Shown here one piece after another: positions 1 to 55,723 of a stretch of 64,000 nt of DNA; the first letter of the stretch is position 1; each line of letters begins with the position of its first letter. A program made the position numbers and the translations under genes. The DNA lies in assembly GCF_964355755.1 (NCBI RefSeq), contig NC_092673.1, positions 34,283,648-34,347,647 on the forward strand, in the 5' to 3' direction. Source of the DNA: Antedon mediterranea (Eukaryota > Animalia > Echinodermata). The notes beneath the pieces are model-generated. The model was not told the DNA's origin and did not search any database. It saw only the letters and a program-made list of their open reading frames with translations.

Positions 1-140
1 TATTGTTATTTTTTTTAGGCAGGAAAATGCTTCCAAACCCCAAAAATTATTATTTATATGTTTTCTGTTACAGGCAAAGCATGCTTCTGCCTTTTAAGGA
101 AGCTTCAGAATTTGACTACAATAGCAATGTAGATTACCTT

Positions 141-2310
141 ATAGTTTCGTCGTGCTCTGCTGTACATAACAGCGACATGATGAAAGTAGCAGACATATTA
201 CAATGGAATGGCTTCACGTATATTAGAATGAAGCCAACAAAAGACAATCAAACAATAATGAAGTATGTCAAAAGACGCAAACACGTTATTGTAGTTCAAA
301 ATTTATTAGTGTTGGAAAGGTTCTCAATAGACTTTACATCTTTTCAATAATATTTGGGATGTAGTATTTAGACTGGAGATAAGAGTCCGATAAAGCAAGT
401 TTTTCGGTTTACCTTTTGTTAAAATGCTGTTTTTAATTGAATGTAGGAGACATAATGAAAATAATTTCTTTTAATGCACAAGATTGTAATAAAGGTTGTT
501 GCAAAATATTTAGCAAAGAGATTGCTGTGAATAATATTAAATATGATTAATTAATTACAATGGAATGGCTTCACGTGTAATGAAGCCAACAAAAGACTTT
601 ACATCTAAACATTTGGGATGCAGTATTTGAATTGGACAAAAATTCACACAAAAGAGATTGACTGTGAATAATATTAAATATGCATATTATGGAATGTAAA
701 ATATTTGTATTATATTAAAAGTTCTACTTAATATTGAGATGATAAAAAAAAGTAGCACTTTGGTTACAGTTCCTCCTGTTTGATCATTTAGCTGTAGGAA
801 ACATAATAATATGAAGAACTAATGATGTATTCCATGCACCAGAAGATAAAGGATATATACTGTATTATTTATTTATTCGGCATGACTAAAAGCTTTATAA
901 GTGAACACAGAAGTGTTGAGAAGGTTTACTTCATCAGAATTCAACAGACTTTACATCCAAAGGTTCCATTTCTTTCCACAGTTTCAGTCAGTGCTTGATC
1001 ATGGTGCAAAATGATTTAATAATTTGCTACCCAACCTAAGCAGATGCGATAAAGGAGTTGAAGAGGAAGCAAAGACTTTTAATAATTTGTTTAACTGTAA
1101 TGTTTGCACTGGTTATTATCCCATTTTGGTTAAGATTCTTCCTATTTGACCACAATGACATATTATAGAATGTAAAATATTTGTATTATATTAAAAGTTC
1201 TACTTAAGATAAAAAAAAAAGTAACTGTATTTTTATTCTCAACCTAAAAAGACAAATACCTTTTTATATGTATTTTTCACAGAATCGTTTAATCACTGGA
1301 AATGATTTATTTAATAAACTTACTGAAAGTTAAGTTTACCTTCTATTAGAGATTGCTGAAATATCTAATTTGAAGGATGCTACTGAGAGCTTCAAGAGAA
1401 GTATTACTGATGTTAGAAAATCACTCAATGGCTGTGCAGGATATCAATGGTTAAGATTCTGCCTATTTGACCATCTAACCTTAGGGGACATTACAAGACC
1501 AAACTGCAAAGCAAATGATTTATTTAATGCACTAGAAATTGGGTAAACCTTCTTTTAGAGACTACTAAACTATCTAAATTGAAGGGTGCATTCAAACATT
1601 GTACAGAACATAATATCTGTAAAGATAAAGGTTACATTGACAGTTCATCTTTTATTAGACATTGCTAAACTGACAAAATTAAAGACTGCTACAGATCTTT
1701 TAACAAAAATATGAGGATTACAACAGTAACACACTTTGAATTATCAACTGATCCAAATGCAGCAGAGGTACCAACACTGTTGCACAGAACAACACAGAAG
1801 AGAAGAATATCTACTGTATGCCTCCCAGAAAAAGCAACCTTGACAACTAATGTCTGTGGAGAAGCTCCTGTAGTAAAGAAATTATGAGATATTCTTCCCA
1901 GAAGAATATCTGCTTATTAACGGAAGAGATTGAGTCTGATAAAGAAAGTTGTCACTGATAAGAAGTGAACACAGAAGTCTTGGAAAGGTTCTCAATAGAC
2001 TTTACATCTAAACATTTGGGATGCAGTATTTGAATTGGACATTGAGCCTTTTCAATAATATTTGGGATGTAGTATTTAGACTGGAGATAGAGTCCGATAA
2101 AACAAGTTATTACTGTATATTATTATTTCTTGATGTGGCAGAAAAATTGCAAGCGTTTTTGGAAGAAAATACTGAAAGAAAGCACAATGAAATGTGACAA
2201 CGTTTCTGAGATATTGTTTGAAGTAGAGAGAGAAATCTCGACAAAAAAGACAGTTTCGTCGTGCTTTGCTGTACATAACAGCGACACGATGAAAGTAGCA
2301 GACATATTAC
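141..2310 (+). repeat. Mosaic block duplicated at ~18254-20087
   Basis: 141-1270 matches ~18952-20087 and 1646-2310 matches ~18254-19010. ORFs 2076-2276 and 18777-18977 translate identically. Confidence 0.9.
1446..1600 (+). pseudogene. Death effector domain-like coding fragment (representative of about 20)
   Basis: Translates WLRFCLFDHLTLGDITRPNCKANDLFNALEI../VNLLLETTKLSKLK, resembling the DED pattern LKFL..D......DLF..LE.....NL.LL.E. Confidence 0.6.
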
Positions 2311-2314
2311 ATAT

Positions 2315-5300
2315 TGTGATTGGTCAATTTGATCTATTTCATTGATTGGTCAATGCAAGAAACTTCAATGACAAAAACTTCAATTCAGAAAAAAAAACTC
2401 TCATTCTAGTCACACCTACTACAGTAGTACTACATTAATACACAGAGAATACTGGAGTAGACTCAAGGATATGGCAGATAAGATATTTCTGTTGTATTTT
2501 TTAATTGTTGTAAATTAATTATAACCTACTGTAGCTAAACTTTAATGAAGATTAGCTACTGTAGGTTAGTTTAACTAATAAGCAAACCATTAAATACTTT
2601 GAATAAAGTTTGGGTACTGTACCTAAATTTGGGCATGTTATAAGTGTTTAAAAATGAAAAACAATTTTATTTTATACTGTTTTTATTTTTTTACCACTAG
2701 CCTAAATCAACATTTCTTAGTGAAGAAGAGATTGAGATGGATAGCAGTAGTAGTGTTAGTGACGACAGCAGATCCGATTCAGAGTCCGATAGTGGTAGCG
2801 ATATGTTTGGCAGTAGCAGTAGCAGTGATGTAGACGACAATATTAATAAGCTACATTTTTTAACAATTTCATCAATAGAATTGTCAAAAATGTTGTAAAT
2901 GTATGTTAATAATCGCATTATTGACGCATTGATCCATTATTTTAACATTTTTTACTTTACACTTTATACTATTCCGTAAATGTCCTACAAAATACAATTA
3001 GGGGCGCAGCTTATTCAATCGATAATTTTATATTTCTAATAATTATTGGAGAGCGACGCTAATTAGGTCATTAACAGTATACATTGTCGATGTAATGAAT
3101 AATGGTTATACTAATAATTGATAGGGTTGGTTTGTTGGGACTTGATAGGGCTTGGGTGGTATTTAGTAAGACCTAGAACAGTGGAGAGAGTGAAACTCGA
3201 ATTGTGCAGATGTTAAATTATAAAATCATAACTTTATTGTCACTGTATTATTTCAACTCAAATGTTATTTATTTTCTAAATTCACCAGGAGCCCAAGAAG
3301 GGTAAAAAACGCACAAGACAATGCCCTTTGCCAAAGTGTAAAGCCAAGGTTCAGCAACTTGTACGGCATCTAATGAGCAGAAAGCATGGTTTATTACGAG
3401 AAGATGCAATGGAAATTGCAGATGAAGGCAGTCTCAAGTTGAAACGCGACAAGTCAGAACTCGACTCTTGTCCGTTTCCGGGATGCAGCATGAAAAGAGC
3501 AAGAGTTGGAAGGCATCTCACTCAATTTCACAAAATTGATAAAGGTATGTTGTATTAATTTTGATTAGTCTTTCAATCCTTTATTCAATAGATCATTATT
3601 AAGAAATATTGAGAACTAAGTAATAGAGGGTGCAATTTAATTCTTGTGCACACTTTAAAATTTACCATGTTCAGATCCCAAATCATTGAATTGCGTTGAG
3701 TTACCAAATCGTTGAAGTTGAGAATAATGATGTTGATTGAGCCGGACTGTTAATATTTACACATTTTAAGCGACCGTTCTTGGTTTTTTAGTTCTTTTGA
3801 GTGTTGCTAGGACACGCTTACGTGAAAATGGCTATAATCATTAAACTATAAATATTAAATGACAATAGTCATTATTTTAAACTGCATCATACATTAATGT
3901 TATTTGTTGTAGAATCTGTTAAAAATTCTTTCAATAAGTTTAGTTGTCCAGTGGCAATATTTCACTCCACGAACATCCTTAAACAGAATATACAAAATTT
4001 GGATTTTCTGATAATAATTCATTAGGATACTGGTGTATTGACCATTCTGTTTCCATTTTAATTTCTTCTTACTCTAGCCATTAACATTAATTACAATTAA
4101 TGTATGATTAGTGGCTAAGGTGCTCACCTTTCAATCCCAGGGTCCAGTTCAGAAAAGGTGGCTATTTGGCTTTCCTTGGCCATGTGCCTAAATAAATATT
4201 TAAAAAATAATGGAATAAAATATTGAGAAATCTAATAAAAACAATAATTACTAAAGATTTATTCTTATTGTACAACAAATTAAACATTTTGTATGATGTT
4301 TTTTTGTTCTTTCAGCTAAATCATTATCGGAAGAAGAAGCGCCTTCTACATATAAACGAGTCGCCCTATACGATAGCTTCAAGAGGTTTAAGAAATACCT
4401 AACCAACATGGTCGGAGGACTCCTAGAGGAGGAGAACGCTCAGCAACATATTGTTCGCCTCCACAGGCTTTCCTCACTTGTTGGTGGTTTGGACGGTATG
4501 GTAAATGCTGACAAAATGCGCGAGTGTTTTACAAATTTACATGTAAAGTCACTAGATGGAAAGAAACCGATATCGGTTTCAACTACACTAGTGTACATTG
4601 GTTCATATAGAAGGTTAGCCAAAGTTGCTACTTTTCAGGATTTTGCCACTGGCCTTTTGCTGCAGACCGAGAAATGGAACTCGGCTCTTGGTCGGCAGAA
4701 AAGGGTTCGGCACGCAGAGGTGGTTGCAACTGATATGCAGGAAAGGCTTCGTCATGACGAATTCCACCTGCTTACCAGTAGCAACAACCCTGCAAAAGTC
4801 CAGGCTTTAGAAATTCTGCGCAAGTCTGAGGAAGAAGAGTCGGAATTTGTACGAGTCAGAGATTATATAATGATGCTGCTCGTATTAAATTCCGGCCAAC
4901 GCAGCGGTTGTCTAAAGAATCTCACTTGCAAAAAGATTCTAAATGCCGAGAAAAGAGGAACCCAGTGGATGATCCTAGCAGCTAGACACAAGACTACGTC
5001 TACTGGACGATGATTATCGGTTGGCTGAGAAATTTATCCAATGGATTCGGCCGTGTGTTAATGACGAATGCGAGACGCGTTACGCCTTCACTAATTTTGT
5101 GGATGGCAAACAACTCTCAAGTTCTGTCATTAGCAAACGGCTGAAAACGGTTTGGATAAGTGCAGGCAACAGGAGTACGTTTAGCTGCACGAGGTTGCGT
5201 AAATTTTACACAACTTCGTTGAGGAGACGGGACCCTACTCTAAGGGAAACTTTGGCCTCCCACTTAACCCACAAAGCAAATACAGCTGATCGATTTTACG

Positions 5301-6820
5301 AACTACAGCAGAGCGTAGATAATAGCCTAAACGTAGCCCGTCATCTACGCTCACTAATATCACTATCGGATCGGATCTGCGGCTACTCTCACTCCATTCT
5401 GAATGTTATTTAAGTTCCTCTTCATTAAGAAATGCTGATTAAAACAGTTTTTAAAAAAACAGTTGTTTGTTTGTTTTTTTAATATAAAGTGTAAATTATA
5501 CAAAATAGGATAGTGTTAATTGCATTTGGTTAAGACGATTGTGCCGTAAAAAATGTTACATAATGGATCAATGCGTTTAATAATGCAATTATTAAAACAT
5601 AGATTTTCAACATTTTTTTTACGACAATTCTATTGATGAAAATGCAATTACTCTTTCTAATGTTAAAAAATGTACCTTATTGTTGTCGTTTGAATATGTA
5701 TCACTTGAATCAAAAGGGGGTGGTGGGGGGGGGGGGTATGGAGGGATGTTCAAACATATAAAAAAAAATTTCCTTCATACCTCCCCTTTAAACATTGGTT
5801 TTTGTATTTTTGTATAATGAATAAATTACTGAAAATGCTTCGGTATCTAACAGTATTTAATATCGACAATATAGATATAATGAGACTGGTAACGACGTGA
5901 CATGTTGTTGATGATTAATTTGATGATGATTTGATGATAATAATAATAATAGACTTGCATCATTTCAATGTTTGTTATTAAATATATATTTTTTTATATA
6001 TTTAAAACCAACCTTTATTTAACGCTACAGATGTTTGACCTGGAAAATTAAAAGGTTGTCACGGGAAAACAGCGATTATTTTATTCTAGTTGCTTTACTA
6101 CAAGTTGTTATAATTCATTTCAACCTCAACTGAGTCCAATGTCTTTTGAAAATGCTTCGGTATCCCTAACAGTATTTAATATCAACAGTATAGATATAAT
6201 GATCAGACTGGTAACGACGTGACATGTTTGTTGATGATTAATTTGATGATGATTTGAATGCAGATGGCACGATATATTTTAAAAGCACCGGCGTATACAC
6301 CCAAAGTGGCTTTAAATGAAAATTTAGGATGGATACCCTTAACCGTATCTCATAACATATTACAAACTAAAATTCTTTGAACGTATAGTCGGGTTGAATG
6401 AGAAACGATGGCCCAACCTGTATTGTACAAGACTAATGCTTAATTACAACACAAAAGAATTACGGTTTAAATTCCATAGTTGTGTACGAACCACTTTCTG
6501 TAGATTTGTTATTAAAAATTGCACTATGGAGAATTTGTTTAATTTACTGAAACAAAATATTTTAGATAACGTAATATTAATCAATGGTCTAGGACCTTGT
6601 ATCTAAATCGACGCTATCTTTTTATGCAAAGTTAAAATCAAAGCCGGATCTTGAACAATTTTAACTTGATAAAACAAATTTTAATGGTGCCCGTCTTAAA
6701 TTTCAAGCCCGTTCCAATTCTCTACCTTTAAATTTTAAATTAAGTAAATGGACCGTGGATAATGATGGTCTCTGTTCATTATGCAACTTTGGAGATATAG
6801 AGGACATATCTCATTTTTTA
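2315..6820 (+). repeat. Copy 1 of the recombinase locus duplication (matches ~24988-29935)
   Basis: Colinear identity from tgtgattggtcaatttgatc to gaggacatatctcattttt, including introns and the downstream LINE fragment. Confidence 0.92.
2471..5413 (+). pseudogene. Disrupted second copy of the zinc-finger tyrosine recombinase gene
   Basis: Near-identical to 25146-28252, but the exon-1 donor is deleted, the exon-2 donor GT is changed to CT (~2851), exon 4 is deleted (~3998), there are in-frame deletions (~4615, ~4835) and a frameshifting deletion (~5005) that splits ORFs 4408-5013 and 5021-5413. Confidence 0.88.
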
Positions 6821-9800
6821 ATTAGTTTTTTAGTAGTTTTTAAGAGAAAATAATTCAGACGAAATCACTCCGTATCACGGAGATCCGTCTTTTGTCAGTA
6901 GACACGAATCGATTAAACAAAGACGCTTGTTAGAAAACTGTGAAAAGTTATTGCAGTCTAACTGCTACTTTAACGAGTTGGGCAACTGTAAAACACCGTT
7001 TCATATTTTCCACCAGTGTAGAAAATGTAAGATATACACAAAACGTAATGTAGGTTCACATGTTAGAGCATGTAACGAAAATACGAAATTACATTACACG
7101 CAATTTAAAGCGTTTCAGTCTTTAAAAGCTGCTCAGAAAAGATCCATTGAGTGCGAATCCACATCAGGATTTTGGACCGATGAACAACAAAAAAAATAAA
7201 AAAATACAAAAAAAAAAAAAATATGTTTAATATTTATGTATGTATATCAATATAATAAAGTTCACACGATGATGAATATTGTTTACGAAAAAGTTATTTC
7301 ATTACCATCTACCGCTACCAACCACATTATTTAAAATAGCGCCCTCTATTATGATGACATCACTACATGGTACCTCAATTTTCGAAAAAATTTATTCTAT
7401 TACCAACAACCATTACCAACCATCCCATATCAACACCATCGTCTATTTTGAAATGAACTGCTCCCCCTTGCGGTGGTACATAAACGGTTCGATACTCACG
7501 ACTAGCCTATAATACGTTGTAGTAAAGTACGCCCTCTATGTGTATATCGCCCTCTATATATGAACATCGCGCTCTACGATATAAAGTGCGCCACCTACGG
7601 TCGATAGAGGGCGCTATTTTATTATGACTCAACAGAATTCCAAGTAATCCAATAAACCAGGTTGAGTAACTACTAACTGAATTAGCACATTTAATAAAAT
7701 GGCAGATAGTTGATGGAAGGTTCTTGGACATCAAATATCAATGGTTAAGATTCGGCCTATTTCACCATCTAACTCCTCATACATATAACCTTTTATTAGG
7801 AATTTCCAAGTACAAGACAACACTGTACATAATTTATTCAACGCACTAAAACTCACCATAGATCATTCCTATTCCTGTCCAATTTTGTATCTAAAGGTTC
7901 ACAATAAAATAACTGACATAGACATAATTAACAATAGTTGCCTTCCTGACCGTTTAGGGAAACCCCACCGTCGTGATGTCTTTATTTCGGTAAATCCGAG
8001 TGTAGCATGCCTCTAAACCAACGGACCCACAATTACGTCGATCTTGAACAACACTTTTGTTTTTTATAGCACTTCAGGTAAATATTTTAGAATATGACAA
8101 CTATAAGTAAAATAAACCTATTTCAAGAACTAATTTTTAAAGAAAGATGGACATAATTAGAAAAAATGCAGGCAGTGCTGCCAAAAATGCTCTTTTCAAT
8201 TTCACCAAAGCGTGATGAGCCACACTGCAGAAAGTATAGAAGAGTCTATATCGTTCTTGGAACCCATGGAACATGCAGACTTTGGTTATGACAATCCGTG
8301 CTAAAACATAAATAAAGCAGACAGACTATAGAACAATATATTTTACACAATTCTACTATTTGGCAACATTTTCCTTGTTTTGCAAACCACAGAGGGGACT
8401 TCTTTTCGAGTTGGGTACACATTTCGCGTATGGTACACATTTTGGTATGTACCACTACCAACAGGAAAGGTGGGTGGAACCTTTTTGCAGAACGTCAAAA
8501 GGCTGGGAAAATTTAAACAACTCATCATCCAACCAATCTATATTATCTTCCCTTTTCTTTTGAGTTTTCTTTTCGTCACATATTTCCGGTTTCTTTTTAT
8601 TCATTTCTTATCCGTTGTATTGTATACATAGGATAGAGCTTATCTTAACCAACTGCATGTAAATGGGGCAATATCAATGCAATGTAGATTACCTTATAGT
8701 TTCGTCGTGGCCTGCTGTACATAACAGCGACACGATGAAAGTAGCAGACATATTATAATGGAATGGCTTCACGTATATTAGAATGAAGCCAACAAAAGAC
8801 AATCAAACAATAATGAAGTATGTCAAAAGATGCAAACATGTTTTTGACGATTACGTTGAAGACACATTTATTATCTGCAACGAAAATTTAGAAATGGTGG
8901 CGACAACTGTCTATAAGACTGAAAGTGAATGCATGCCCCTGCTCTAACAATAAATTTAATGACACAGTGTCATAAAAACTTTAACTCATTGTTCAAAGTA
9001 TTAAGCAAATAAAATGTATTATTTAAAAAAGATGGTAAAGAGTTATCATTGTCCTGTCTTAGGATCAGATTAAATTAAGAATAAGCAACTGATTTTCATT
9101 GATGTTTCTTGAATGTTCTTATTATTCATTTTACTGTAGATGCATATTTACAACTAATAGCATTTCACCAGAATCTTGAAGACGAGGGACATCAGTTGGA
9201 TGCAAAACAAATTGTATGTTCACATTTCATTGCCGAAACCCTAAATTTCAGGCGAATCACCCACTTGCTGCAACCGGAGTTGCAGGTTAGGTTATTTTGT
9301 AGTTGAGTCTTCAAATCATATCCTAAATTTATTATCTGCAACAGAAATTCAAAAATAGAGAACTCATGAAAACGTGAAAGTTATTAAATTATATTGCGGA
9401 CTTCACATTTGTCACTTTTGTGTCCATAGGTTGGTCATGCCACAGGTGCCATGGGCTAGGTACCCAATCATGGTTGTTAAAGGCCGATTGGATTGTAATC
9501 ATTGTTTTTTCATTAAAGAAAATACAATGAGGACACCGCCGACAGCCCCTAATTCACCCACCCTCTAAAACCCTTCTAGTTGTTTAAATTTTAAATCAAT
9601 TAATACACGATTTTTAAAAGTGCAACAGCTGCCAACACTCATAAATCTAGTCAGGGATTGGGGTATTCTGCCTCAGCAGAATTTTTTTACAGTATTATTC
9701 CAACTCAAATGTTATTTATTTTTTAAATTCACCAGGAGCCCAAAAAGGGTAAAAAGCGTACAAGACAATGCCCTTTACCAAAGTGTAAAGCCAAGGTTCA

Positions 9801-10159
9801 GCAATACACCCACCCTCTAAAACTCTTCTAGTTGTTTAAATTTTAAATAAATTAATAAATTAAATATTAGGCGCAAACTTTATTGATGTGGCAGACAAAT
9901 TACAAGCGTTTTTAGAAGAACTTAACTAGACGGGGAAAACACTGAAAGAAAGCACAATGAAATGTGGCGATGTAGCTGAGATGATGTTTGAAGTAAAAAG
10001 CCAGACTCTGAACACGCATGGATGACACTCTTAAGGAGGCATTTTGCAAGACCTAATTCGGATGGACTGAAAGTGATATGTCGTGACACGATTTTTACAA
10101 GTGCAACAGCTGCCAACACTCATAAATCTAGACAGGAATTGGGGTAGTCTGCTTTTTTG

Positions 10160-10375
10160 ACAGTATTATTTCAACTCAAATGTTATTTATTTTCTAAATT
10201 CACCAGGAGCCCAAAAAGGGTAAAAAGCATGCCCTTTACGAAAGTGTAAAGCCAAGGTTCAGCAATTTGTATGGCATCTAATGGGCAGCAAGCATGGCTT
10301 ACTACAAGAAGATGCAATGCCAATTGTAGATGAAAGCAGTCTCAAGTTGAAACGTGACAAGTCAGAACTTGACAA
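10160..10375 (+). pseudogene. Diverged fragment of the recombinase zinc-finger exon with its upstream intron (second fragment at ~9690-9803)
   Basis: cagtattatttcaactcaaatgttatttattttctaaattcaccag|gagcccaaaaaggg matches 25905-26130 with substitutions and deletions. Confidence 0.85.
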
Positions 10376-10627
10376 AAAAAAACTAAGGATGATGGAAGAC
10401 TCTTCAAATGAAGACAAAAAACAAACAACTTTCTAGAAAAATAAGAAATTTAAATTGTCAACTGCAAAGGAGAGAAGGGGTAATTTCTTATTTAGAAGGT
10501 TTGACCAAGGATTTGGAAAGAAGAATAGCTGAAGGGGAAGAACGCCTACAGCGTATTGAACCAGATGAAGAAATTGTGTATATTGATTAAATGACTGATA
10601 ACTGTAAGTAATTGGTTACCTTATTTT

Positions 10628-10872
10628 AAAGGAAGCTTACACCTTTAATTCAGAAGACATCGACAACAACAATGTAGATTGTCTTATAGTTTCGTCGTAG
10701 CCTGCTGTACATAACAGCGACACGATGAAAGTAGCCGACATATTACAATGGAATGACTTCACGTATATTAGAATAAAACCAACAAAAGGCAATCAAACAA
10801 TAATGAAGTATGTCAAAAGATGCAAACGTGTTATTGTAGTTCAAAATTTATTCTTTGAAGATTACGTCGAAT
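10628..10872 (+). pseudogene. SEFIR/TIR-like coding fragment (copies near 95-305, 2251-2310, 8680-8860, 18952-19115)
   Basis: LIVSS..AVHNSDTMKVADILQWNGFTYI...YVKRCKRVIVV resembles the first strand/helix and later strand of SEFIR/TIR; pattern-level only. Confidence 0.35.
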
Positions 10873-11628
10873 GAATGCATTATTAAGCAGTGAACACAGA
10901 AGTGTTGGAAAGGTTCTCAATAGACTTTACATCTAAACATTTGGGATGCAGTATTTGAATTGGAGATTGAGCCTTTTCAATAATATTTGGGATGTAGTAT
11001 TTAGTCCGATAAAACAAGTTTTTCGGTTTACCTTTTGTTAAAATGCTGTCTGTTTTTAATAAAGGTTTAATAACACTTTGGTTACAATTCTTCCTCTTTG
11101 ATCATTTAGCTGTAGGAAACATATAATAGTTATATAATGATGAAGTATATACTGTATATTGTTATATTGTTAGTTATTTCTAAATTATAGAAAAACTGTA
11201 AAATAACATGCTCTTTTGGTTAAGCTTCTGCCTATATGATCACTTTTCTGTAGGGAACATATATTTTTCCAGAATGAGTGATAATAGAAGGATAGAGAAT
11301 CTTGAGAAGGAGGTATACAAGTTGAGAAAGAGGAGAAACTAGAAAAGTCAGAGGCAAAAAAAACCAATGATGGAAACCGATATAATGGCCATTCCATGAA
11401 TGAGCTGAAGTCATGCATATGGCCAGTAGATCCTTTGTTGAATACTGCCCAAAAAAATATTTACAAAATTGAAGAATCAAAAAACAAAAAATCAATGAAG
11501 AGTGGAGACAGGCCTCACCCTCCGCTTGATCACTAGTTTGGAAAATATAGTAATTGTACCCACAAGTTGTACCAAACAATTTTTAAAAAAAATCAACCGC
11601 TTCCGAGTACAACAATAATGGTTAACTT

Positions 11629-11985
11629 TTAAAAATAAAACGCGCGGATTTCGCATACAGCACAACTGCAATACAATAACAAAAACCTATATGCTTTATG
11701 GGACATATTGAACAACTCATCTCCTGCCAATTCACCGCTTTGTTGCTTTCGTCGTCTTTGACGATCTTGTTTGAACTCCGTTGGAATTTCACATTTTGAT
11801 GCAAATTTCTTTGCGTCGCTCATTAATGCCTTGTAATATTCGTCGCTTCTCTTAAATGCCAGTGCTTTTTCAGCATCGTCTATTAGTTGTAATGCTGTAT
11901 CTATTGCAATTCCTCGCTCTTGCAATGCGTCAGAAGCCACACGAATTGTCAAGGATGTCTTTGAGAACTGTAAAAATCCCACAAC
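11629..11985 (-). mobile_element. hAT-family transposase fragment (ZMYM1-like C-terminal region)
   Basis: SDALQERGIAIDTALQLI...KRSDEYY...AKKFA....FKQDRQRRRK is characteristic of hAT transposases just before the dimerisation domain. Confidence 0.7.
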
Positions 11986-13623
11986 CGAGGTAGTAGATCA
12001 CGATATATTAAGATTCAAGTTAGAAGAACCGCAATTTCTTGAAGCCGAACCGTCGCAACTACGAAAAGCGTGGATTGGAATGTTGTCCGAGGGTACGGAG
12101 ATTAAACTGAGAGAACAATTTGGACACGACGTGGACACTTATTTACGCCATATAAGACTGGTAGAAGATGAAATTATAGAAAAGGACAAACTGCACAGAT
12201 TCAGACCATTGGTTTACAAGACTGGTGAAAAGAAACTTTCACGGTGTACGTGTTCAAAACAAACGTTATGAACTTTTTATATGTATATTCATATTATGTT
12301 TATGGTCTTTTATAAATGACATTGTATACATGTGGGTTTTTTTTTTGTGTGTGTGCGTGTGTTGCCAATAAAACGAATGAAATTTAGCCGTCTCGTTCTC
12401 TGTTTTAATCATTACAGACAAGAATAGCATTGATAAACGCGCACTTTATAATGAACACAGATAGTATGTGTACTGTAAGAAAATACATCTCCGTAATTAT
12501 TTTATACACTTCTCATCGAATATAAAGAAAATGTATACGACCGATTCTAGTAAAAAAAATGCCTATAAAGCGCCGCGCTGTTATCATGGTCTACCTGCAT
12601 GCTTAACAATGAAGCGCGCTGTTATCATTGACTTGATGTTATATTTTCATTTAAAAAAAACATCCCTCAAGGAAAATGATAAGAAAAGATGATGGTCAAT
12701 GGTGAGTAAAACAAATATATGTATCAAATACGAGTCTCGAACCCTAGCCTAATGCTACAGCGTTACATTACGAGACTCAAGAACTACCCATTCAGCTGGC
12801 TTACAATCTACCGATATCATAACATTATTACTAATTTATCAAAAACTATAGAGGGCGCGATATCGGCGTAGATATAGAATCTAGGATTGGATTTACGACT
12901 AGGCGCCTAGAGGCAGCCAGTTCAAATTTTTAATATATCAAATATGGAAACGAATTACTATATCACACATATTTGGGATAACAATTAAAAATATTTCTTT
13001 ATAGCTTTGTGACCTGGTGTGTACACTGACACACGCCATGGCCATTTCCATTGTAATCGATAAAAGCAAAGCAGACAGTTTTTATAGTAACAATTATGCA
13101 GTGTTTTAATTTTGGAAATTAAATTCCGTTTATACAGGTGTCATAGTCGAATCATCATTCGATAACAAAATTAATAAGGAGAAGGAGAAGGAGAAAGGAG
13201 GAGCGAGAGAGAACTAAATAAAATTTAAAACATAGCATTTTTTATTCGCTTATATTAAACTATAAATAATAATAATACATATTAAACATAATAATTTCTT
13301 AAAAAGTAATTGACCCTGACTCTTTGGGACCGGTGTATACATTGACCGACGGTGACGCTTATTTCCATATTGCCGATGGTTTTATTGTAACACTGCAGTA
13401 ACTAACGATAGAATTACACCCGTTTGTGCCTGTCATTCGAAAACCCTACGCAAATTAAGCAGGGTATGAGGAGCAAGAGGAGGCACGATATATTCAATAC
13501 GAATTTAAAAGCGCGCACACACACACATTAGTAATCGATAACCATTCATCGGTTTTGTTGTTTGTTGACAAATCGCGTGTAGTTAACATTCATCGCAACG
13601 GAGATGGTATAAAAATAGACAGT

Positions 13624-14277
13624 ATGGAGTTTTATTTCGGTTTTCCTTCACACACCGTATGCAGACCGGAAGGAAACCTGAAATGTGTACGTGTACATCT
13701 GCTACATAGACGGATAGCACACACTATTTTTTAAAAATGTAGGAAAATACATTTATTCACTTCTATATATAAATTACGCAATGTGATCAGTGAAGTAGAT
13801 CACATTAGATGTGCAGCGTACGGTGATTTGGAGTTATCATTCCAAATAGGAGTTCACACAAACATCGACGATACAACAAGAAGTCCTCTGTGTTACTGGC
13901 CGAAATTTCTACTCGAAATGCGTGAATGGATACACATTGCGACTGGTCATAGTTACATTATGGTGACTTTGACAAGAGCAGAGGATTCAGCGGAATGCTA
14001 TCTTAATAATGTACAAAGGAGCGAAACAAGTCCTGTATGCATTATGTCTCTTGGACCTACTAGAATCTGTAGATTCGAACACCGTACAAAAAACCCCATT
14101 AAACCGGTGAACATAAAAATGGAGCATGGTTCGATGCTGGTAAAAAATTCTGAAACAATCAATGAATGGTCAAGAACTGTACCAAAGACAGATGGAATAG
14201 GAAGCACCAGCATATTAACATTTATGAACATTGAAAGGTATAGTAACATCAATATTACAACAAACAATGTATTGTAG
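13624..14277 (+). pseudogene. Intronless AlkB/ALKBH2-like 2OG-Fe(II) fold gene, catalytic motifs absent, one in-frame stop
   Basis: ATG 13624 is in frame with ORF 13783-14277 apart from TAA at 13732. ALKBH2-like blocks AAYGD, W..FL.EMR, IMSLGPTR..RF, MEHGSMLV, W..TVPK, ILTF. TATAAAA at ~13608. Confidence 0.7.
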
Positions 14278-15502
14278 TAAATTCTTGGAGCGGTAACGTT
14301 AAATCATGAACGTCAGCCAGTCACTAGAAGACACACACACATCCCGCATGCAGAGCAGAACGAAACATGAAAATATATCTGCTACATTTTCAACTTAATA
14401 ACCTTTTTCATACATTATGATTTACTTTATTATAACTCTAAAATATGAAAGAAATAAATCTTTATTTGAATTGAATTGAATTATTTTAATACCAATGGTA
14501 GGAAACTAGTATTTGGACGTTTATGAACTTTAATTTATTAATGCATCATGTGACAATTTGAATTATCTTTATTTTATTACAAAATACTAATAAATTTTTC
14601 GAGTGTAAAACAATCAAGCATAGATTCTCTTTATTACTCTCAGTGTTTTATGTGTGTGAATTATGCAGTTCTGATCCTGATAGAGCAGTAACACGCATCC
14701 GTATCCAATTTTGAAAGTCAACGACGACGTACCGCTCATAGTAAGCGTCGAAAAATCCAGATCCGAATACAATGCGGTGGTGGTGGCCAAAGAAGAAGTT
14801 TCATCTGCGAAACGACCATGTAGATGATTTTTGTTTTTTTAATAAATTAGTAGTATAGTAGTAGTAGTTGCACAGAAATGGATTGAACTTCTGTATACAT
14901 AATTTCATGTATACTTTTACGTAACAGTATAGCCAATATAACTTGTGATTTTTTACTTACTTACATTAATTTATTGAATATTGTTATGTGTTATGATGTG
15001 GACTTTGTTTTGAAATAAACGTGAATTGATTGAATTGGATTTTATAAATTATAGATATAGGGTACAATACTTTGTTGTCACTGAATCATGGGCATTAGTT
15101 TTGTTTACCTTATGCGAAGACTCCTTCAAGAAAGAAGAAAAGGAACAATAAAAAATGTGAGGCTGAACCTTGTGGTGGAACAGCAAATGAATCATGGATT
15201 TCGTGTGACATCTCTGGCAGGTGGCATCACCAAAACACCTGCACATCCCCCATGCATAGGCTTCTTCAGGAAGGAAAAAGGGAACCCTTAAAAAGTGTGA
15301 GGCTGAACCTTGCAATGGAACTGAGAGTGCCAACGAATGGATATATGTCCTCTCACATATCATACCACATAACGTGGCAGAGTAATTCAACAGCATAAAT
15401 AAATTTCCCTTTAGCATAGTAACTACATAGCCTTTTTGGGTTTTCATTGATGTCACCATTATACTAAGTTTAATTTACTGCATAGACTGCCTGCATACTG
15501 TA

Positions 15503-15672
15503 TATGGTTGAGATTCTGCTTATGTGACCACCTAACTTTAGGAAACATAACATGATACAATTTAAAGGAAATGATTTATTCAATGTACTAGATCTTACAG
15601 TAGGTTCGTTACCTTTAAAAGAATAAGTTAACCTTCTTCTTGAGATTGCTGAACTATCTAAATTGAAGAGTT
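15503..15672 (+). pseudogene. DED-like coding fragment, different paralog
   Basis: WLRFCLCDHLTLGNIT*..FKGNDLFNVLDLTVGSLPLKE*VNLLLEIAELSKLKS, with stops and a frameshift. Confidence 0.6.
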
Positions 15673-16014
15673 GTGATGTTGAATGAATATCATTAGGTAA
15701 ATTGACGTTGATGGAATATTAGAATTGAAGGATTCTACAGTACCAGCCAGAAAGTTTGATCTCGACTCAGGTTGATAAAGACAGCATGGAGAGAATGGAA
15801 GACAACCAAGGTTGTTAAAATTCTGCCTATTTGATCACATACCTTTAGGACACATTATCAAGTTCTCTTGAACTTGAATAAAAATTTATTGAGGTACAGG
15901 TACAGTAATACTATTCTGCCACCTCAATGGACCCTTGGAAGGAGCCACAAAATACCGGATATAGGTTTGTCCACGGTGATACTGATTTGATCCTGTTAAC
16001 GAGATGAAGATAGA

Positions 16015-16368
16015 AAGTGGCAAGAGAGAATAGTGTACATGGCTGGTGAGATCCACCCTAGCCATAACACTAGGTTTTGGAAAGCAAGGGAGGTACAGGC
16101 AAGTCGACTTTGGCAAGACAACAACAATAAGACCGCCAACGTTTTATTTGCTCACAATGGGGAAAGAATTGTCGTTTTTGACTTTTGCAGAACTAATGAG
16201 GACAAAGTCAACTACCAAGTAATTTGAAGCCATTAAAAATGGTTTTATTTTAACTCTAAACGAATCAATTACAAAAGTATTTGATATTCCACATGTAATT
16301 ATTTTTGCTAACTTTGCACCATGACAAATTTAAGTGTTGATAAATGGATAATCCTTCACGTTTATTAA
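16015..16368 (+). pseudogene. CRESS DNA virus-type Rep, SF3 helicase domain remnant
   Basis: Across frameshifts: Walker A ESKGGTGKSTLAR, Walker B IVVFDFCR, NYQVI-EAIKNG, motif C PHVIIFANFAP and LSVDKW. Confidence 0.85.
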
Positions 16369-19300
16369 CCTATCCAGAACAACTAATTACACTTAGTCTT
16401 GAATATCATCAAATCACCAGTTTAATGACCCGAGAGAGATAGGTTGATCTTATAAATCCGAGACAAAGCCTAAAATCCTCATATGAAGAATGGAGCAAAT
16501 GATTAAATGCACAAGATGATGAAGGCTATATAGTGTCCTATATAACCTTTTATTAGAAATTGCCAAGTACAAGAAAACACTGAACATAATTTATTCAATG
16601 CACTAAAACTTTGGTCACCATAGATCATTCCTACTAAAATCAACCTCTCTTAAAGATTACTTAGCATTAATCCAAGTTTGATATTCTTTTTTGTTGATCC
16701 TATAAAAATAATAAAATAATAACTCAATTAAATTAAAAATATGTTTTGCAAATGCTCTATTCACATTCTAAAGCTGACAGGTGACCTTGTTTTCAATCTT
16801 CTTGACCTTTCACCATGTCGTTCCACTGTTCAAACCTGGCTTTTTCTTTCTTGGTAATTTGAGTGTTCTAATTTTGCATTGTGGTTGAGTTGAATTGCAT
16901 GATCTATGTCCGATTGATTGATAAGCAAGTTGAGATATTAAACTGGTGTTTTCTTTTTTACTTCTTGTTCTCCGATATAAATATGGTCACAGTTTAACAG
17001 GCCACTTTAATGCAGCCACAACTTTCCATTTTATCTTTTGGATTTAGTTATATGTGGTATAAAAAGTCTTTGTTTCGAGGGTTTCCATGAAAATAATAGA
17101 ACACCGCTGAATCTTCTCAATTATTTCTTTTGTTTGAAGTTGCCTTTTGTAGGACTACCAAAGCACAATAATTACAAGGCTCATCGGATCTATTGATTTA
17201 AAAAAAAAATAAAATCATCTTCTCTACGTTTCAGCATCTTTGTATCTTATGTGCAAGAGTTACCATAGATGGTGAGTTACACTAATTGGATATCATGTGA
17301 TTGTTGACTTCAAATAGTTATCCAGGTTAATTTCCATAATTTTATTGGTCTGTACAGGTTGACTTAGTTGTTAGTCAATGATTCTTCAAATCTTTCTCAA
17401 ATATAGGTTTGATGATGACTGCCACTGATGTAATCACTTGTTATTCCATAATGTTCTAGCCATTCCATAAACTTGTTTGTGATAATAAGCGTCTTCTTGT
17501 TGCATCACTGCTGTCAACAACACACAGGTGATGTTAGACCAGACTAAAAATAACAGCACCAGTCTACTTGAGAAAGCAAAGAGCATTCGCGAAACATAGT
17601 TATAAGGTACTATATTTTTGTACTTAAATTCTTTATTTTGTATTAGATTTAAAAAAAAGATAAAACTTAGGGTATCGTTAAGCAATATCTACAGAGGTTG
17701 ATTTTAGTAGGAATGATCTACAGTAATTCAAGTTCTAATGCATCAAAAAAATAATGTACAGGTAATTTTTATTCTCAACCTAAAAAGACAAATACCTTTT
17801 TTATGTATTTTTCAGTGAATCGTTTAGTCACTTGATTTATTTAATAAACTTACTGAATTTACTGGAGTAAACCTTCTATTAGAAATTGCTAAACTACCAA
17901 AATTGGAAGAACGTCGCAAATACAATTGCAAATCGCAAATACCATGAAAATGTCAAAAAAAAGAAAAAGCTAAAGGAGCAATCAGTTTGTAATATCCGTA
18001 AAATGCATTTCCAAAATACCTAATATATTCGATTCAGACACGAATGATGAAACGTTTAATCACTGAATGGAAATGATTTATTCAATGAACTACAATTTAC
18101 TGGAAGTAAACCTTCTATTAGAAATTGCAAAACTATCCAATTTCGAAGAATGCATAAAAACCATCACTCAACTGCACAAAGTGAATGGCTGAGCAAGACA
18201 GATCATCACAAAAATGATGAAGAAATTTAATAGGTAAAATTCGTCACAACCAATCTTTTATTAGACATTGCTAAACTGACAAAATTGAAGACTGCTACAG
18301 GTCTTTTAACAAAAATATGAGGATTACAACAGTAACACACTTTGAATTATCAACTGATCCAAATGCAGCAGAGGTACCAACACTGTCTGTGGAGAAGCTC
18401 CTGTAGTAAAGAAATTATGAGATATTCTTCCCAGAAGAATATCTGCTTATTAACGGAAGAGATTGAGTCTGATAAAGAAAGTTGTCACTGATAAGAAGTG
18501 AACACAAAAGTGTACAGGTAATTTTTATTCTCAACCTAAAAAGACAAATACCTTTGAAGGTAAGAATCCTGTAGTAAAGAAATTATGAGATATTCTTCCC
18601 AGAAGAATATCTGCTTATTAACGGAAGAGATTGAGTCTGATAAAGAAAGTTGTCACTGATAAGAAGTGAACACAGAAGTGTTGGAAAGGTTCTCAATAGA
18701 CTTTACATCTAAACATTTGGGATGCAGTATTTGAATTGGACATTGAGCCTTTTCAATAATATTTGGGATGTAGTATTTAGACTGGAGATAGAGTCCGATA
18801 AAACAAGTTATTACTGTATATTATTATTTCTTGATGTGGCAGAAAAATTGCAAGCGTTTTTGGAAGAAAATACTGAAAGAAAGCACAATGAAATGTGACA
18901 ACGTTTCTGAGATATTGTTTGAAGTAGAGAGAGAAATCTCGACAAAAAAGACAGTTTCGTCGTGCTTTGCTGTACATAACAGCGACACGATGAAAGTAGC
19001 AGACATATTACAATGGAATGGCTTCACGTATATTAGAATGAAGCCAACAAAAGACAATCAAACAATAATGAAGTATGTCAAAAGATGCAAACGTGTTATT
19101 GTATTTCAAAATTTATTAGTGTTGGAAAGGTTCTCAATAGACTTTACATCTTTTCAGTAATATTTGGGATGTAGTATTTAGACTGGAGATAAGAGTCCGA
19201 TAAAACAAGTTTTTCGGTTTACCTTTTGTTAAAATGCTGTCTGTTTTTAATTGAATGTAGGAGACATAATGAAAATAATTTCTTTTAATGCACAAGATTG

Positions 19301-22300
19301 TAATAAAGGTTTTTACAAAATATTTAGCAAAAAGATTGCTGTGAATAATATTAAATATGATTAATTAATTACAATGGAATGGCTTCACGTGTAATGAAGC
19401 CAACAAAAGACTTTACATCTAAACATTTGGGATGCAGTATTTGAATTGGGACAAAAATTCACACAAAAGAGATTGACTGTGAATAATATTAAATATGCAT
19501 ATTATGGAATGTAAAATATTTGTATTATATTAAAAGTTCTACTTAATATTGAGATGATAAAAAAAAGTAGCACTTTGGTTACAGTTCCTCCTGTTTGATC
19601 ATTTAGCTGTAGGAAACATATAATAATATGAAGAACTAATGATGTATTCCATGCACCAGAAGATAAAGGATATATACTGTATTATTTATTTATTCGGCAT
19701 GACTAAAAGCTTTATAAGTGAACACAGAAGTGTTGAGAAGGTTTACTTCATCAGAATTCAACAGACTTTACATCCAAAGGTTCCATTTCTTTCCACAGTT
19801 TCAGTCAGTGCTTGATCATGGTGCAAAATGATTTAATAATTTGCTACCCAACCTAAGCAGATGCGATAAAGGAGTTGAAGAGGAAGCAAAGACTTTTAAT
19901 AATTTGTTTAACTGTAATGTTTGCACTGGTTATTATCCCATTTTGGTTAAGATTCTTCCTATTTGACCACTATGACATATTATAGAATGTAAAATATTTG
20001 TATTATATTAAAAGTTCTACTTAAGATAAAAAAAAAAAGTAACTGTATTTTTATTCTCAACCTAAAAAGACAAATACCTTTTTATATGTATTTGAATTGG
20101 ACATTGAGCCTTTTCAAAACCATTAGGGATGTAGTATTTAGACTGGAGATTAAGTCCAATAAAACAAGTTTTTCGGTTTACCTTTTGTTAAAATGCTGTC
20201 TCTTTGATCAATTAGATGTAGGAGAAATGAAAATGATTTCTTTTAATGCACAAGATTGTAATAAATGTTATAATTATATATTAATATTTAGCAAAAATTC
20301 ACACAAAAGAGATTGCTGTGAATAATATTAAATATGACATATTATGGAATGCAAAATATTTGTATTATATTAAAAGTTCTACTTAGATAAAAAAAAAAGA
20401 TAATGAAGATACTGTAAACAAGACACATACCACTGTGGTGGGGAGATACAGTATGAAGAATTCCATAACTTTGTACGGTGCTTAATCGAAGAAAGTGCCG
20501 ATCAGAAAAATCTAATTCTGTTGCCACCGCCATTGCTGTGAATCTATGGGAAATGCATCAAAGTGGAAAATTACTCCTTTTGTTAAAATTCTGCCTATTT
20601 GATCAATTAGATGTAGGAGACATTTGGGATGCAGTATTTAAACTAGAGATTGAGCCTGGTGAAAAAAAACCTTTTTCAACTAATATTTGGGAAGTAGTAT
20701 TTAGACTGGAGATAACAAAGCTTAGAAACTAGTCAACACAATATTTTAAAAAGGTTGTGTTTATTCCAAACATTTGGGATTTAGTATTTAACTTGGAGAT
20801 TAACTAAGCTTTTAGAAACCATACAAAATAAAGATCAAAAGACAATAGCTGATCTATAGCTAATTATAGCTATTTTGTGTCACCTATACATTTTGCTAGT
20901 AGATAGGACAAAAGACATCACCATTGGTAGAAAATTTGTTCATTGCAGAAGATGAAGAAAATGACATTAGTTATGGCATCATAATCTAATGAATTACACA
21001 AACTTAATTTCAATTACAATATTCAAGAGTTTCAAAACGATAAGAATTTTGAATCACAGCAAACCATTACCAGTTCCATACCATTTTAAAATCATCTTAC
21101 TGCGATTTATATCGTTGATTAAATATAAAGACTTGTCAAAATGTTTCAGTCACAATAACCTTAGTGATATCACAGGTTTTTACCAAGGCGTTATCATAGA
21201 TGGTCAGTGAATGAGCTAAAAGGAAAGTTTTGCTACAATTATCTTAATATCAGAAACAATAATCTCAGCAAAATCAAGATTTAACTAAATTGCAGGTCAT
21301 CTGTGAAGCAATATCACAAAATAACTAGATTTTCTCTATATCTCTCATAATAACCTCAATGACATCAAAGGTACTTAACTTGCCATAGTACCGTTTATTT
21401 CTCCAAGAAATGCAACATGGGTGGGTTCAATCGCCAACACAACAAATTTCAATTGATGTATATTTGATGTATAGGCCTATATTTCCATTATGCAGATTCC
21501 ATAATATCATTCATTGTTTAGTTAATCAAATTCAATCAAATGAATACATTTCAGAATTTAATAATTTTATAGGATATTGTACTTGTAGTGCAAAGCATAA
21601 AACAAAATTGTCAAAAAGAAGTTGGTGGCATTGGGTAAAGAATTAAAATAAAACATAGTTTTAAACAAAGGTAATTTAATTTATTTTGAAATAGAGCAAC
21701 ATAATTGGCCAATAGCTAGCCTCTTCGGATTTGTTGTACTGCCTATAATATCGCACACACAGTAGTTTTCGAGCAGCCTTCCTATCCGAAGAGTCTATTA
21801 AGTCCGAAACGAAAGGATGGAAGAACTATTGTACGGAAAACCCGAACAGATCTGTTTTGTACGATATGATATTGTATAAGGTGATAATATGTATTAAATT
21901 GCAAGATTTTCATAAAAAAAATATTTTATTTTTGTTCTGTGGTATATTATTTTTTTGGTTGTTCAAAAAACACAAAATTATGCCAGATTATGCTAAAAAC
22001 GGCTAAATAATGCAGCGGCATTATGCCAGATGCCGTGGGCCTCCAAATATGCCAAAAAGCATAATAATGCCAGAAATGGCAACTATGATTTGAGCACAAG
22101 CTAACTGTTTATATTTAACGTTCAATCAATAAGATAGATAACCTAAGTTAACCTGTTACATTTCGATTCAAACCTTGCTTTGAACGGGTGATCAGGGCCT
22201 CCTACACATCTGTTCAAACCTTGCTTTGAGGTGCCTGTACACAACAGTGTGGTTCAAGACTTGATGCAGAATGATCTAGAACCTACAGACAAAGAATTAA

Positions 22301-22845: not shown

Positions 22846-24850
22846 AAATAATAAAAATGTATTGAAAATATGCTAATTAATTTGTTTATAATTGATTTTA
22901 ATTAATTAATGAAGAATTTTTTTTTTTTTTTGGTTTTTTGTTTTTTTTTGTTCATATTTATTCATTCATTCATTATTATATTATTCTATTTGACTTTTTC
23001 ACTTCAAAAATTAATTTTTAAATTACAATTATGGGACATAAGGATAGGATTTTATACAGTAAACCATATTTTTAACCCTGAATTTATGGTTAAAATATGG
23101 TATTAAGGCTCTATGTTCCAAACTCTAGGGGGCGCATCGGGGTTATGTTATGGTTGGAGCGGCGTGATGTCCCATCATGAAGTAGATTATCGTTTTATTT
23201 TGCGACAAGCAATATATTATTTAGGGAAACTGAGTTGGTGGCTGGTTAAGGAATAAATACTTTTAAAATATCTTTTTTTCGATTTCATACCGTTTTCGAC
23301 TGCAAACCATTATGTCGATGGCTTGTTTTCCTGGTATCGCCCTCTTTTTAGGGCTTTAATTTTCTAAACTATAGAGGGCCTGGCAAATAAAATATTGAAA
23401 TAAATAATTTAATATCAAATTTATTTTTATTTTATTGTTTGATTTATATTATATATACATTATATTTATTGTAAAACTTACAGTTAATGAAATGGACATG
23501 ATAATATGCCCAGCCAGACCAAACAAAATGTGCTAGGCCCAGGCCTAGCCTATAAAGTAGGCTAGATAGGGCGGCCGGTACTACTTCTGTAGGCTTCAGA
23601 AATAACCAATATAGAATTACAGTCTAAATTTAATTAAAATTCAATTATGTTTTAATAATATATATGTTTTTAGCATCTATAGTTTTATAGAATTTTGCTG
23701 ACTTGGTAATTTTTATGAAAATCATTATTATATGTTACTTTTTTAAACAATTTCAGTACCGGTATATTAACAAAAAAGTGTATAGGCTTCAGAAATTACC
23801 ATTGTAGAATTACAGCTTAAATTTAATTAAAATTCAATTATGTTATATTGATATATATGTTTTTAGCATCTATAGGTTTATAGAATTTTACTGGCTTGGT
23901 ACTTTTTAGGAAAATCATTACCGGTATTAATATTAATTAAATTTAAGTTCATTAAACCATCTTTATGACCCGGGGCTCATTAAACCATATTTTAAGATAA
24001 GATTAGATATAAGATAATTAATAATTAAACCATATTTGGGAGGGGGCTTAAGTCCATTAAACCATATTTTAACCCTGACTTCAGGGGTATAATATGGTAC
24101 GTGGCTTTATGGCCCGGGGATCAAGTCCAATAAACCATATTTTAACCCTGACTTCAGGGGTATAATATGGTACGTGGCTTTATGACCCGGGGATCATTAA
24201 ACCATATTTTAAGATAAGATAATTAATAATTATAATTAATAGTTAATAACAATTAAGTAGATAAGATAAGATAATTAATAATTATAATTAATAGTTAATA
24301 ACAATTAAGTCCATTAAACCATGTGGGAGGGGGTTTAAGTCCATTAAACCATATTTTAACCCTGACTTCAGGGGTATAATATGGTACGTGGCTTTATGAA
24401 CCCGGGGATCAAGTCCAATAAACCATATTTTAACCCTGAATCCAGGGGTATAATATGGTACGTGGCTTTATTACCCGGGGATCAAGTCCATTAAACCATA
24501 TTTTAACCCTGAATTCAGGGGTATAATATGGTACGTGGCTTTATGACCCGGGACTCATTAAACCATATTTAAAGATAATAATTACAATTAATAATTAATA
24601 ACAATTAGGTCCATTAAACCATATTTGAACCCTGAACTCAGGGGTATAATATGGTTTACTATATAAATTCCTATCCTTATGTCCCATAGGCCTAATTGTA
24701 ATTTGTAATTTAAAAATTAGTTTTTGAAGTAAAAAAATCAAATTGATTGGAAATATGAACAAAACAAAAAAAATAAATTCTTTATTAATTAATATTAATT
24801 ACTGTATAAACAAATTAATTAGCATATTTTTCAATAAATGTTTATTATTT
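22846..24850. repeat. ~2 kb segment bounded by ~250-bp imperfect inverted repeats, containing a palindrome array
   Basis: 22846-23100 is the reverse complement of ~24617-24850 (e.g. atgggacataaggatagga / tcctatccttatgtcccat). Also an internal direct repeat, 23588-23745 vs 23780-23925. Confidence 0.8.
24049..24657 (+). repeat. Array of ~73-bp units each with the imperfect palindrome ACCATATTTTAACCCTGA(A/C)TTCAGGGGTATAATATGGT
   Basis: Full units near 24049, 24123, 24338, 24411, 24484, 24608; a related copy at ~23060 and a half copy at 24920-24952. Confidence 0.9.
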
Positions 24851-24989
24851 AATTGATTTAATATAATTGCCATAAAAATTAGATGATTTTCGGTTAGGGT
24901 TAGGAGGGGGAGGGGGTTTAAGTCCATTAAACCATATTATAACCCTGAATTTCTTCCTGGACAGTGTGGTGCTGGCTCTATCATCTATG

Positions 24990-25026
24990 TGATTGGTCAA
25001 TTTGATCTATTTCATTGATTGGTCAA
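24990..25026 (+). promoter_or_regulatory. Putative recombinase promoter: tandem inverted CCAAT boxes
   Basis: Two tgattggtcaat motifs about 120-150 bp upstream of the ATG at 25146; also present in copy 1 at 2317-2353. Confidence 0.4.

Positions 25027-46818: not shown

Positions 46819-55723
<8,905 letters not shown>

Follow-up and report, generated by a model that had tools for sequence, protein, structure and literature searches.

A co-oriented mosaic of tandem-DED and mobile-element pieces in the crinoid Antedon mediterranea, laid out like a unistrand piRNA cluster

The stretch analysed here, a window of 64,000 nucleotides from Antedon mediterranea (assembly GCF_964355755.1, contig NC_092673.1, positions 34,283,648 to 34,347,647, forward strand; all coordinates below are those of the window), carries at 346-20810 a mosaic of about 40 short pieces, 39 on the plus strand and one on the minus strand, with none further right. 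By homology, the pieces derive from the tandem death effector domain (DED) module of a crinoid immune/cell-death gene family. Echinoderms and other invertebrates possess large families of NLR proteins (nucleotide-binding, with leucine-rich repeats) and of death-domain proteins. By its layout, and not as a member of the class, the locus is classed as working like a cluster of PIWI-interacting RNAs (piRNAs); the favoured reading, to which we assign a probability of roughly one half, takes it for a unistrand locus resembling a piRNA cluster, whose putative targets would be the host DED/NLR family together with mobile elements. Among the three mechanisms proposed in the first-pass annotation, made from the sequence without database searches, a piRNA-cluster-like archive fits best, owing to the strand bias of the virus-derived and mobile pieces and to apparent transcription, its small-RNA output being putative.

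Composition of the mosaic and its source genes

Scanning both strands of the window with mismatches allowed recovered 12 copies of the WLRFCLFDH core (motif A; 12 plus, none minus), ten of NDLFNAL (motif B; nine plus, one minus) and nine of NLLLEIAKL (motif C; all plus). Every plus-strand copy lies within 761-20580, and shuffled sequence of 21 kb gave on average 0.1, 0.39 and 0.3 matches, respectively. The 19 sites listed in the first-pass annotation all lie within 20 bp of a motif match; a fourth motif absent from it, NIWDVVFRLEI (motif D, 13 copies), comes from the second DED, motifs A, B and C coming from the first. A protein hidden Markov model (HMM) built from ten intact Antedon tandem-DED modules gave 33 matches of at least 7 bits, 30-153 nt long, with 32 on the plus strand of 343-20804, none on the minus strand of that span and a sole, weak match outside it (36763, minus strand, 8 bits); none of ten shuffled sequences gave a match. 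DNA profiles built from DED pieces of the window itself yielded 40 matches at E ≤ 0.01, with a single one on the minus strand (17665-17761) and none beyond 21.5 kb. The expected strand bias was thus borne out, both by the motif copies, almost all of them plus, and by 39 of the 40 profile-defined pieces. Together the DED pieces occupy 1772 bp, or 8.7% of 343-20804, and DED therefore does not make up most of the region: the fragments described earlier as a 21-kb mosaic are real, but their share is about 9% and local duplicates inflate their number. A satellite is ruled out, as Tandem Repeats Finder shows no array over the DED pieces. The mosaic reaches about 21.4 kb, where it closes with a leucine-rich-repeat (LRR) piece, and may continue beyond the left edge of the window.

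Co-orientation extends beyond the DED pieces, in that all six other tool-supported items lie on the plus strand (the LRR piece, a tyrosine-recombinase copy, its long interspersed element (LINE) piece, other recombinase exon pieces, a Rep piece of a circular Rep-encoding single-stranded (CRESS) DNA virus and an AlkB-like piece), the six being not fully independent because the recombinase copy and its LINE piece form one duplicated unit. Of 59 Rep-like frames taken from small contigs of IMG/VR, 41 matched the Rep piece at E ≤ 1e-3 in a search of the 64-kb window, always on the plus strand; the contigs had been selected by a pattern taken from the Rep piece itself, so that the sole independent match is its upstream part (16120-16224). 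Five such frames were scanned, and four of them carry Viral_Rep, RNA_helicase or both. The observed/expected CpG ratio is 0.1-0.55 in the DED-rich kilobases (1-2000 and 15000-21000), resembling that of the host genes, and about 1.2-1.4 in those derived from mobile elements (5000-8000 and 12000-14000).

Pieces have also been duplicated and re-joined within the locus. The segment 143-1275 recurs at 18953-20093 with 98% identity, and 1866-2311 at 18567-19012 with 99.8% identity. Some chimeric joints share 3-6 bp of microhomology (AGAC at 594-597, GTATTT at 20088-20093), these being single examples, as automatic counting of the junctions gave 53 candidates with too much noise for statistical use. 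The AT skew is reversed at 16.7-17.7 kb, where an inverted block occupies about 16.7-17.76 kb.

The identity of the donor genes was established through homologues. Pfam returned no DED on 34 frames of the window, and on 42 further frames zf-RVT and SET were the only useful matches. A phmmer search with the frame at 1334-1543 found ten proteins, seven of them from A. mediterranea, and a follow-up search added three Antedon family proteins; the matches P0002, P0004 and P0006 were dropped as unrelated repeat proteins. The word-index homologue search with the same frame returned nothing; searched with the DED alignment, metagenome contigs yielded no loci and the PDB no sequence match. Pfam DED was recognized in P0001 (49.6 bits, cut-off 35.9) and, below the cut-off, in P0007, P0009 and P0010. 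When the model of the module was compared with known structures by Foldseek, tandem DEDs matched best (all 26 matches listed, TM scores of about 0.4-0.55), and the top ten were all caspase-8/cFLIP/FADD DED assemblies with a probability of 1.0, at E = 0.014-0.05 and with a predicted local distance difference test (pLDDT) score of 64 for the model. The DED identity proposed earlier is therefore upheld by Pfam in intact homologues and suggested, with modest statistics, by the predicted fold. The donor module, about 170 residues long and N-terminal, seems closest to the tandem DEDs of caspase-8, cFLIP and vFLIP (structural E >0.001), but in Antedon proteins it is fused to NACHT-LRR, ROC, RING/NHL or ubiquitin and not to a caspase.

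Of these partner domains, LRRs are represented in the mosaic by profile matches of 11-17.5 bits at 21118-21408, and the profile scan found no NACHT, ROC, RING, NHL or ubiquitin piece at 11 bits or more. Within the module itself, positions 21-40, 61-80 and 131-150 are each retained in 5-11 copies and positions 101-130 in none, the latter being detectable in 89 of 148 leave-one-out test pieces; the remaining empty regions are accounted for by poor detectability. Retention thus centres on the four conserved motifs, and one helix that is just as detectable is absent. This distribution suggests that conserved motifs were preferentially retained. Positions 101-130 might nevertheless survive, in decayed form, in a piece left unassigned ahead of motif D (e.g., near 18660-18700).

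After merging of near-identical copies (such as 1448 and 7742, by self-comparison), the pieces fall into about seven lineages of A, seven of C and four to five of D. The pairwise ratio of non-synonymous to synonymous differences (pN/pS), calculated without duplicates on 10 of the 12 copies of A, 7 of the 9 of B, 8 of the 9 of C and 6 of the 13 of D, is 0.34 for A, 0.64 for B and 0.37 for C, and 16 of 38 amino-acid variants match residues found in intact modules (0.25 expected, P=0.014). Taken with the synonymous share of changes considered below, these values indicate that the divergence arose partly in coding genes and partly through later decay. The proposal that the pieces stem from several once-coding paralogs is accordingly moderately supported by lineages, pN/pS and variants, with local duplication and decay contributing as well. 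A complete-looking 55-bp GT...AG mini-intron is present on the plus strand at 1229-1280 and 17762-17815, and its occurrence inside the mosaic suggests copying at the DNA level.

Presence in a second individual and a second species, and probable transcription

Contigs of a second individual (run X5) cover 29 of the 30 bins of 1-20000, and those of a second species (runs X6 and X8) cover 30 of 30 in each case. In the second species the same pieces occur with different joints, e.g., 1383 to 17955 and 10656 to 118, which at a likeness of 80 may stem from repeats. An assembly artefact is ruled out by the presence of pieces and junctions in other runs. On the mosaic, X5 contigs lie at 702-1207, 6798-7656, 8019-8442 and 16729-17341. 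The first of them, 506 bp with one mismatch, crosses several fragment junctions, fitting the twin near 19.5-20 kb equally well. No single X5 contig piece spans the whole locus; there is a gap at 13341-14007, and the AlkB-like piece at 13735-14277 is uncovered. In one of the contigs, the 693 bp that match 15608-16300 contain 9 mismatches and about 1220 bp beside them contain 52, a hint that motif pieces diverge less than spacers do, as they would under selection.

The nature of X5 was read from its coverage of the SET-domain gene at 58.4-64 kb. There, one contig piece (63079-63245) corresponds to an exon bounded by splice dinucleotides (63079-63246), and the lengths calculated from the depths of three bins, 167, 71 and 97 bp, lie close to those of their exons, 168, 73 and 98 bp; for a fourth bin the calculation gives 107 bp, where the exon delimited by eye measures about 86 bp. 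X5 is empty in four of 30 bins of this gene, all intronic, while the DNA runs X1 and X2 cover all 30. X5 therefore behaves as spliced RNA, and transcription of the mosaic is strongly suggested. In addition, an X5 contig that carries the insertions of the better-preserved recombinase unit at 24988-29960 begins exactly where a splice acceptor is predicted (at 4314 in its twin), which hints at splicing and expression of this gene.

Other features of the window

Coordinates are collected in Table 1. The decayed recombinase-unit copy in the mosaic, 4.5 kb long, contains intron-like stretches and, by eye, a zinc-finger-like first exon; in the better-preserved unit the open recombinase frame occupies 27077-28252 on the plus strand (391 aa), preceded by a zinc-finger-like first exon at about 25950-26208. 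No relatives of this recombinase were found by the word-index homologue search, among viral contigs or in the PDB, and the model predicted from its sequence alone, with a pLDDT of 35, could not be used.

Several further pieces of the mosaic stand apart from these groups. One recurs four times on the plus strand (118-300, 8675-8846, 10663-10850 and 18953-19100) and contains an open reading frame some 70 codons long; by eye it resembles TIR or caspase-type domains, but it had no match in Pfam, the PDB or Atlas and is left unassigned, and Atlas searches in general gave no usable match. Open frames or cysteine-rich pieces without Pfam matches are present, also on the plus strand, at 6837-7199, 11950-12271 and 15099-15395. 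A cluster of CGCCCTCTAT/ATAGAGGGCG motifs at 7330-7625 and 12848, with an 18-bp inverted pair, resembles CTCF-type sites or element ends. The minus-strand frame at 11632-11997, which had no match in Pfam or the PDB, we take to be hAT transposase-like. To the right of the mosaic, the two host genes are convergent, the first being assumed to be NMNAT-like and the second SMYD5-like, and the 5S rRNA-like and tRNA-like matches, the only ones in Rfam, are probably heads of short interspersed elements or pseudogenes.

Table 1. Features of the 64-kb window in order of position
Feature	Coordinates	Strand	Content or basis
Left tandem-DED cluster	346-2098	+	D at 346, 603, 2006, 2054; A at 408, 751, 1119; B+C at 1293, 1637
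Longest DED piece	1385-1592	+	A-B-C in natural order, in left cluster
Decayed recombinase-unit copy	2315-6848	+	95-98% identical to 24988-29960; small deletions split the open reading frame
LINE reverse-transcriptase C-terminal piece ending the recombinase copy	6665-6850	+	zf-RVT E=0.0012, below cut-off
DED pieces	7718-7856	+	A, C, B, rearranged order; motif scan, profiles
Two recombinase first-exon pieces, other family members	9689-10373	+	94% and 87% identical to 3232-3465
DED pieces	10931-11262	+	D, D, A, A, A; motif scan, profiles
Frame of 122 aa	11632-11997	-	Likely strand-bias exception
AlkB-like 2OG-Fe(II) oxygenase piece	13735-14277	+	Pfam PF13532 E=0.011, below cut-off
DED pieces	15498-15862	+	A, B, C in natural order (15498-15676), then A; motif scan, profiles
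Broken CRESS DNA virus Rep helicase-domain piece (endogenous viral element)	16120-16321	+	About 70 residues; Rep homology
DED pieces, left arm of imperfect inverted pair	16496-16799	+	C, B+C, flank; self-comparison, profiles
Inverted homologue of 16496-16799 arm	17541-17761	-	70% over 227 bp; holds the sole minus-strand DED piece
Right DED cluster	17826-20810	+	Near-identical duplicates of left cluster; A, D, D, D at 20562-20810
Decayed LRRs, Antedon DED-NACHT-LRR type; right end of mosaic	21118-21408	+	tblastn to P0015, E=8.5e-6 (700-bp subject)
73-bp array	24043-24552		Inside inverted pair 22844-23106/24614-24852
Better-preserved tyrosine-recombinase unit, outside mosaic	24988-29960	+	Phage_integrase E=7e-5, below cut-off
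97-bp satellite, about 35 units	37740-41121		Further dispersed copies: 42.6-42.9 kb, 46.4-46.7 kb
tRNA-like match, outside mosaic	46118-46190	-	Rfam
Host gene	~48300-55710	+
5S rRNA-like match, outside mosaic	49250-49370	+	Rfam
47-bp and 28-bp minisatellites	57464-58333		Tandem Repeats Finder/self-comparison
Host gene with SET domain	59150-64000	-	Pfam SET

Origin, competing explanations and known systems

The favoured history of the locus starts from pieces homologous to the tandem-DED module and LRRs, to the neighbouring recombinase and to CRESS Rep, nearly all on the plus strand and duplicated and re-joined as described above. Copies of NLR genes and mobile elements would have entered or duplicated in one orientation and then been compacted and reshuffled; the pieces would be what remains of larger DNA-level copies shrunk by deletions, given that the order A-B-C-D-LRR has in many places been kept and that there is intron-like sequence. 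Transcription without splicing is strongly suggested. RNA from the minus strand, with a predicted start near 21.5-22 kb, would then be cut into piRNAs, dampening DED/NLR transcripts, the neighbouring recombinase and the virus, and retention of the most conserved motifs would allow few small RNAs to cover many paralogs.

Several points weigh against the piRNA-cluster-like reading. One DED piece is inverted, as are a 1-kb block and the likely hAT piece, and a head-to-tail tandem gene array would likewise yield co-oriented pieces; local pseudogenes that collapsed are consistent with the natural order of A, B and C and with the step from DED to LRR. The synonymous share of distinct changes (24 of 62, against 0.30 expected; P=0.08) is a modest coding signal. 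The 22 of 38 amino-acid variants absent from intact modules mean that the pieces may have diverged too far from present targets. Few founder lineages underlie the retention bias, in which decayed pieces are set against test pieces that are intact. As to transcription, X5 also covers intronic 59753-60212, none of the 15 joints listed for it is a splice joint, its RNA status is inferred from coverage and recorded nowhere, likeness thresholds differ between its comparisons on the mosaic and on the SET gene (80 and 90), and contigs carry neither strand nor expression level.

Much of this could also be expected of a functionless graveyard, in which a head-to-tail DED-NLR tandem array collapsed through deletions and local duplication, collected mobile DNA and is transcribed solely as read-through noise. 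Natural motif order at 1385-1592, 15498-15676 and 20562-21408 (from DED to LRR), the large near-identical local duplications, the microhomology joints at 594-597 and 20088-20093 and the many variants that resemble neutral decay all speak for it, and we regard it as the main rival, though the less probable account, since it leaves unexplained the shared orientation of unrelated viral, recombinase, LINE and AlkB-like pieces, the survival of conserved motifs with positions 101-130 and NACHT/ROC/NHL undetected, and the persistence of the pieces in a second species. Another explanation, in which a large element of the tyrosine-recombinase or rolling-circle kind captured host fragments as cargo in its own orientation, would account for the recombinase gene and related exon pieces lying inside the mosaic on the same strand, and for the short inverted motifs flanking that gene (2864-2955/5546-5644). 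However, the copy in the mosaic is broken, being a decayed version of a better-preserved neighbour 22 kb away, at 25-30 kb, around which DNA profiles find no DED pieces; the region common to both units is 2315-6848/24988-29960 only, without DED cargo; self-comparison of the window shows no element ends enclosing the mosaic; and DED-rich bins in DNA run X1 have a single-copy-like depth, by a rough measure (about 12-40, against about 22-34 for single-copy DNA). The decayed-cargo suggestion of the first-pass annotation is therefore a poor fit and improbable.

Still harder to sustain is its remaining suggestion, a donor pool that diversifies expressed DED/NLR receptors by gene conversion, even though several paralog lineages are present among the pieces and the variants are enriched for residues of intact modules, as this explanation would have it. 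Donor arrays of the chicken immunoglobulin type consist of domain-length pseudogene donors beside an intact acceptor; the window holds pieces of 30-153 nt and no intact module. The pieces are broken up by frameshifts and deletions, they keep the least variable motifs of a signalling domain and not the ligand-sensing LRRs, virus and transposon pieces are interleaved with them, and 21.5-64 kb contains no intact acceptor gene, all of which makes gene conversion the most improbable of the explanations considered. A sense (plus-strand) long non-coding RNA, serving as decoy for, or ping-pong partner of, small RNAs made elsewhere, is compatible with contigs that leave the strand of the RNA undefined; it has no direct support, the unistrand clusters used for comparison carry their pieces antisense, and we consider it very improbable.

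Among known systems, the closest in layout are the Drosophila flamenco and flam-like unistrand piRNA clusters, which carry antisense remnants of Gypsy long-terminal-repeat elements and have proven piRNAs (PMC10643416). Like these, the Antedon locus is a long intergenic array with remnants in one orientation and, apparently, transcribed; it differs in that its most repeated content consists of host immune-gene motifs, in scraps of 30-150 bp, and in that its piRNA output is putative. Core piRNA clusters of mosquitoes trap endogenous viral elements in antisense (bioRxiv 10.1101/2022.08.22.504762), and the co-oriented viral piece, here CRESS Rep, and the species-variable patchwork are shared with them, but in Antedon host-gene pieces outnumber viral ones, and read-through origin and antisense orientation are putative. 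Copies of host genes also occur, as antisense pseudogenes, in the pachytene piRNA clusters of mammals (PMC4105748 for the marmoset, PMC4423968 for the pig), where, as here, they are proposed regulators of their parent genes. The marmoset copies are processed pseudogenes of individual genes (PMC4105748), in contrast to Antedon, where one expanded immune family has left numerous short pieces that are compacted, reshuffled and accompanied by intron-like sequence suggesting DNA-level copying. Ping-pong on protein-coding sequence has been described for mollusc piRNAs (PMC6128900). In plants, microRNAs that arose from duplicates of nucleotide-binding-site LRR (NBS-LRR) genes target a conserved encoded motif (PMC5026261); immune-receptor paralogs as the source and the focus on conserved motifs are alike, as a functional analogy only, and unlike the plant hairpins the Antedon locus has no good hairpin, its best inverted pair reaching 70% over 227 bp. 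Rfam gave no microRNA match in the window.

The one-way-archive layout is thus already known, and the host-immune-motif content is the unusual part; in the literature covered, mostly without subscription papers and by titles and listings, no animal locus built from DED/NLR motifs is reported. A bolder version of the piRNA-cluster-like reading, which we offer tentatively and regard as doubtful, would make the locus a dedicated small-RNA locus, a compact, reshuffling library of conserved DED/NLR motifs whose piRNAs restrain dozens of cell-death receptors. It would then be, by analogy, an animal counterpart of the microRNA control of plant NBS-LRR genes, with host immune genes trapped in the way that viruses and transposons are, a parallel of equally doubtful standing. 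If antisense piRNAs to conserved DED motifs are made here, the locus would offer one testable control point for the NLR and death-domain families, and, if true, this would be a case of convergence with the small-RNA control of NLRs in plants.

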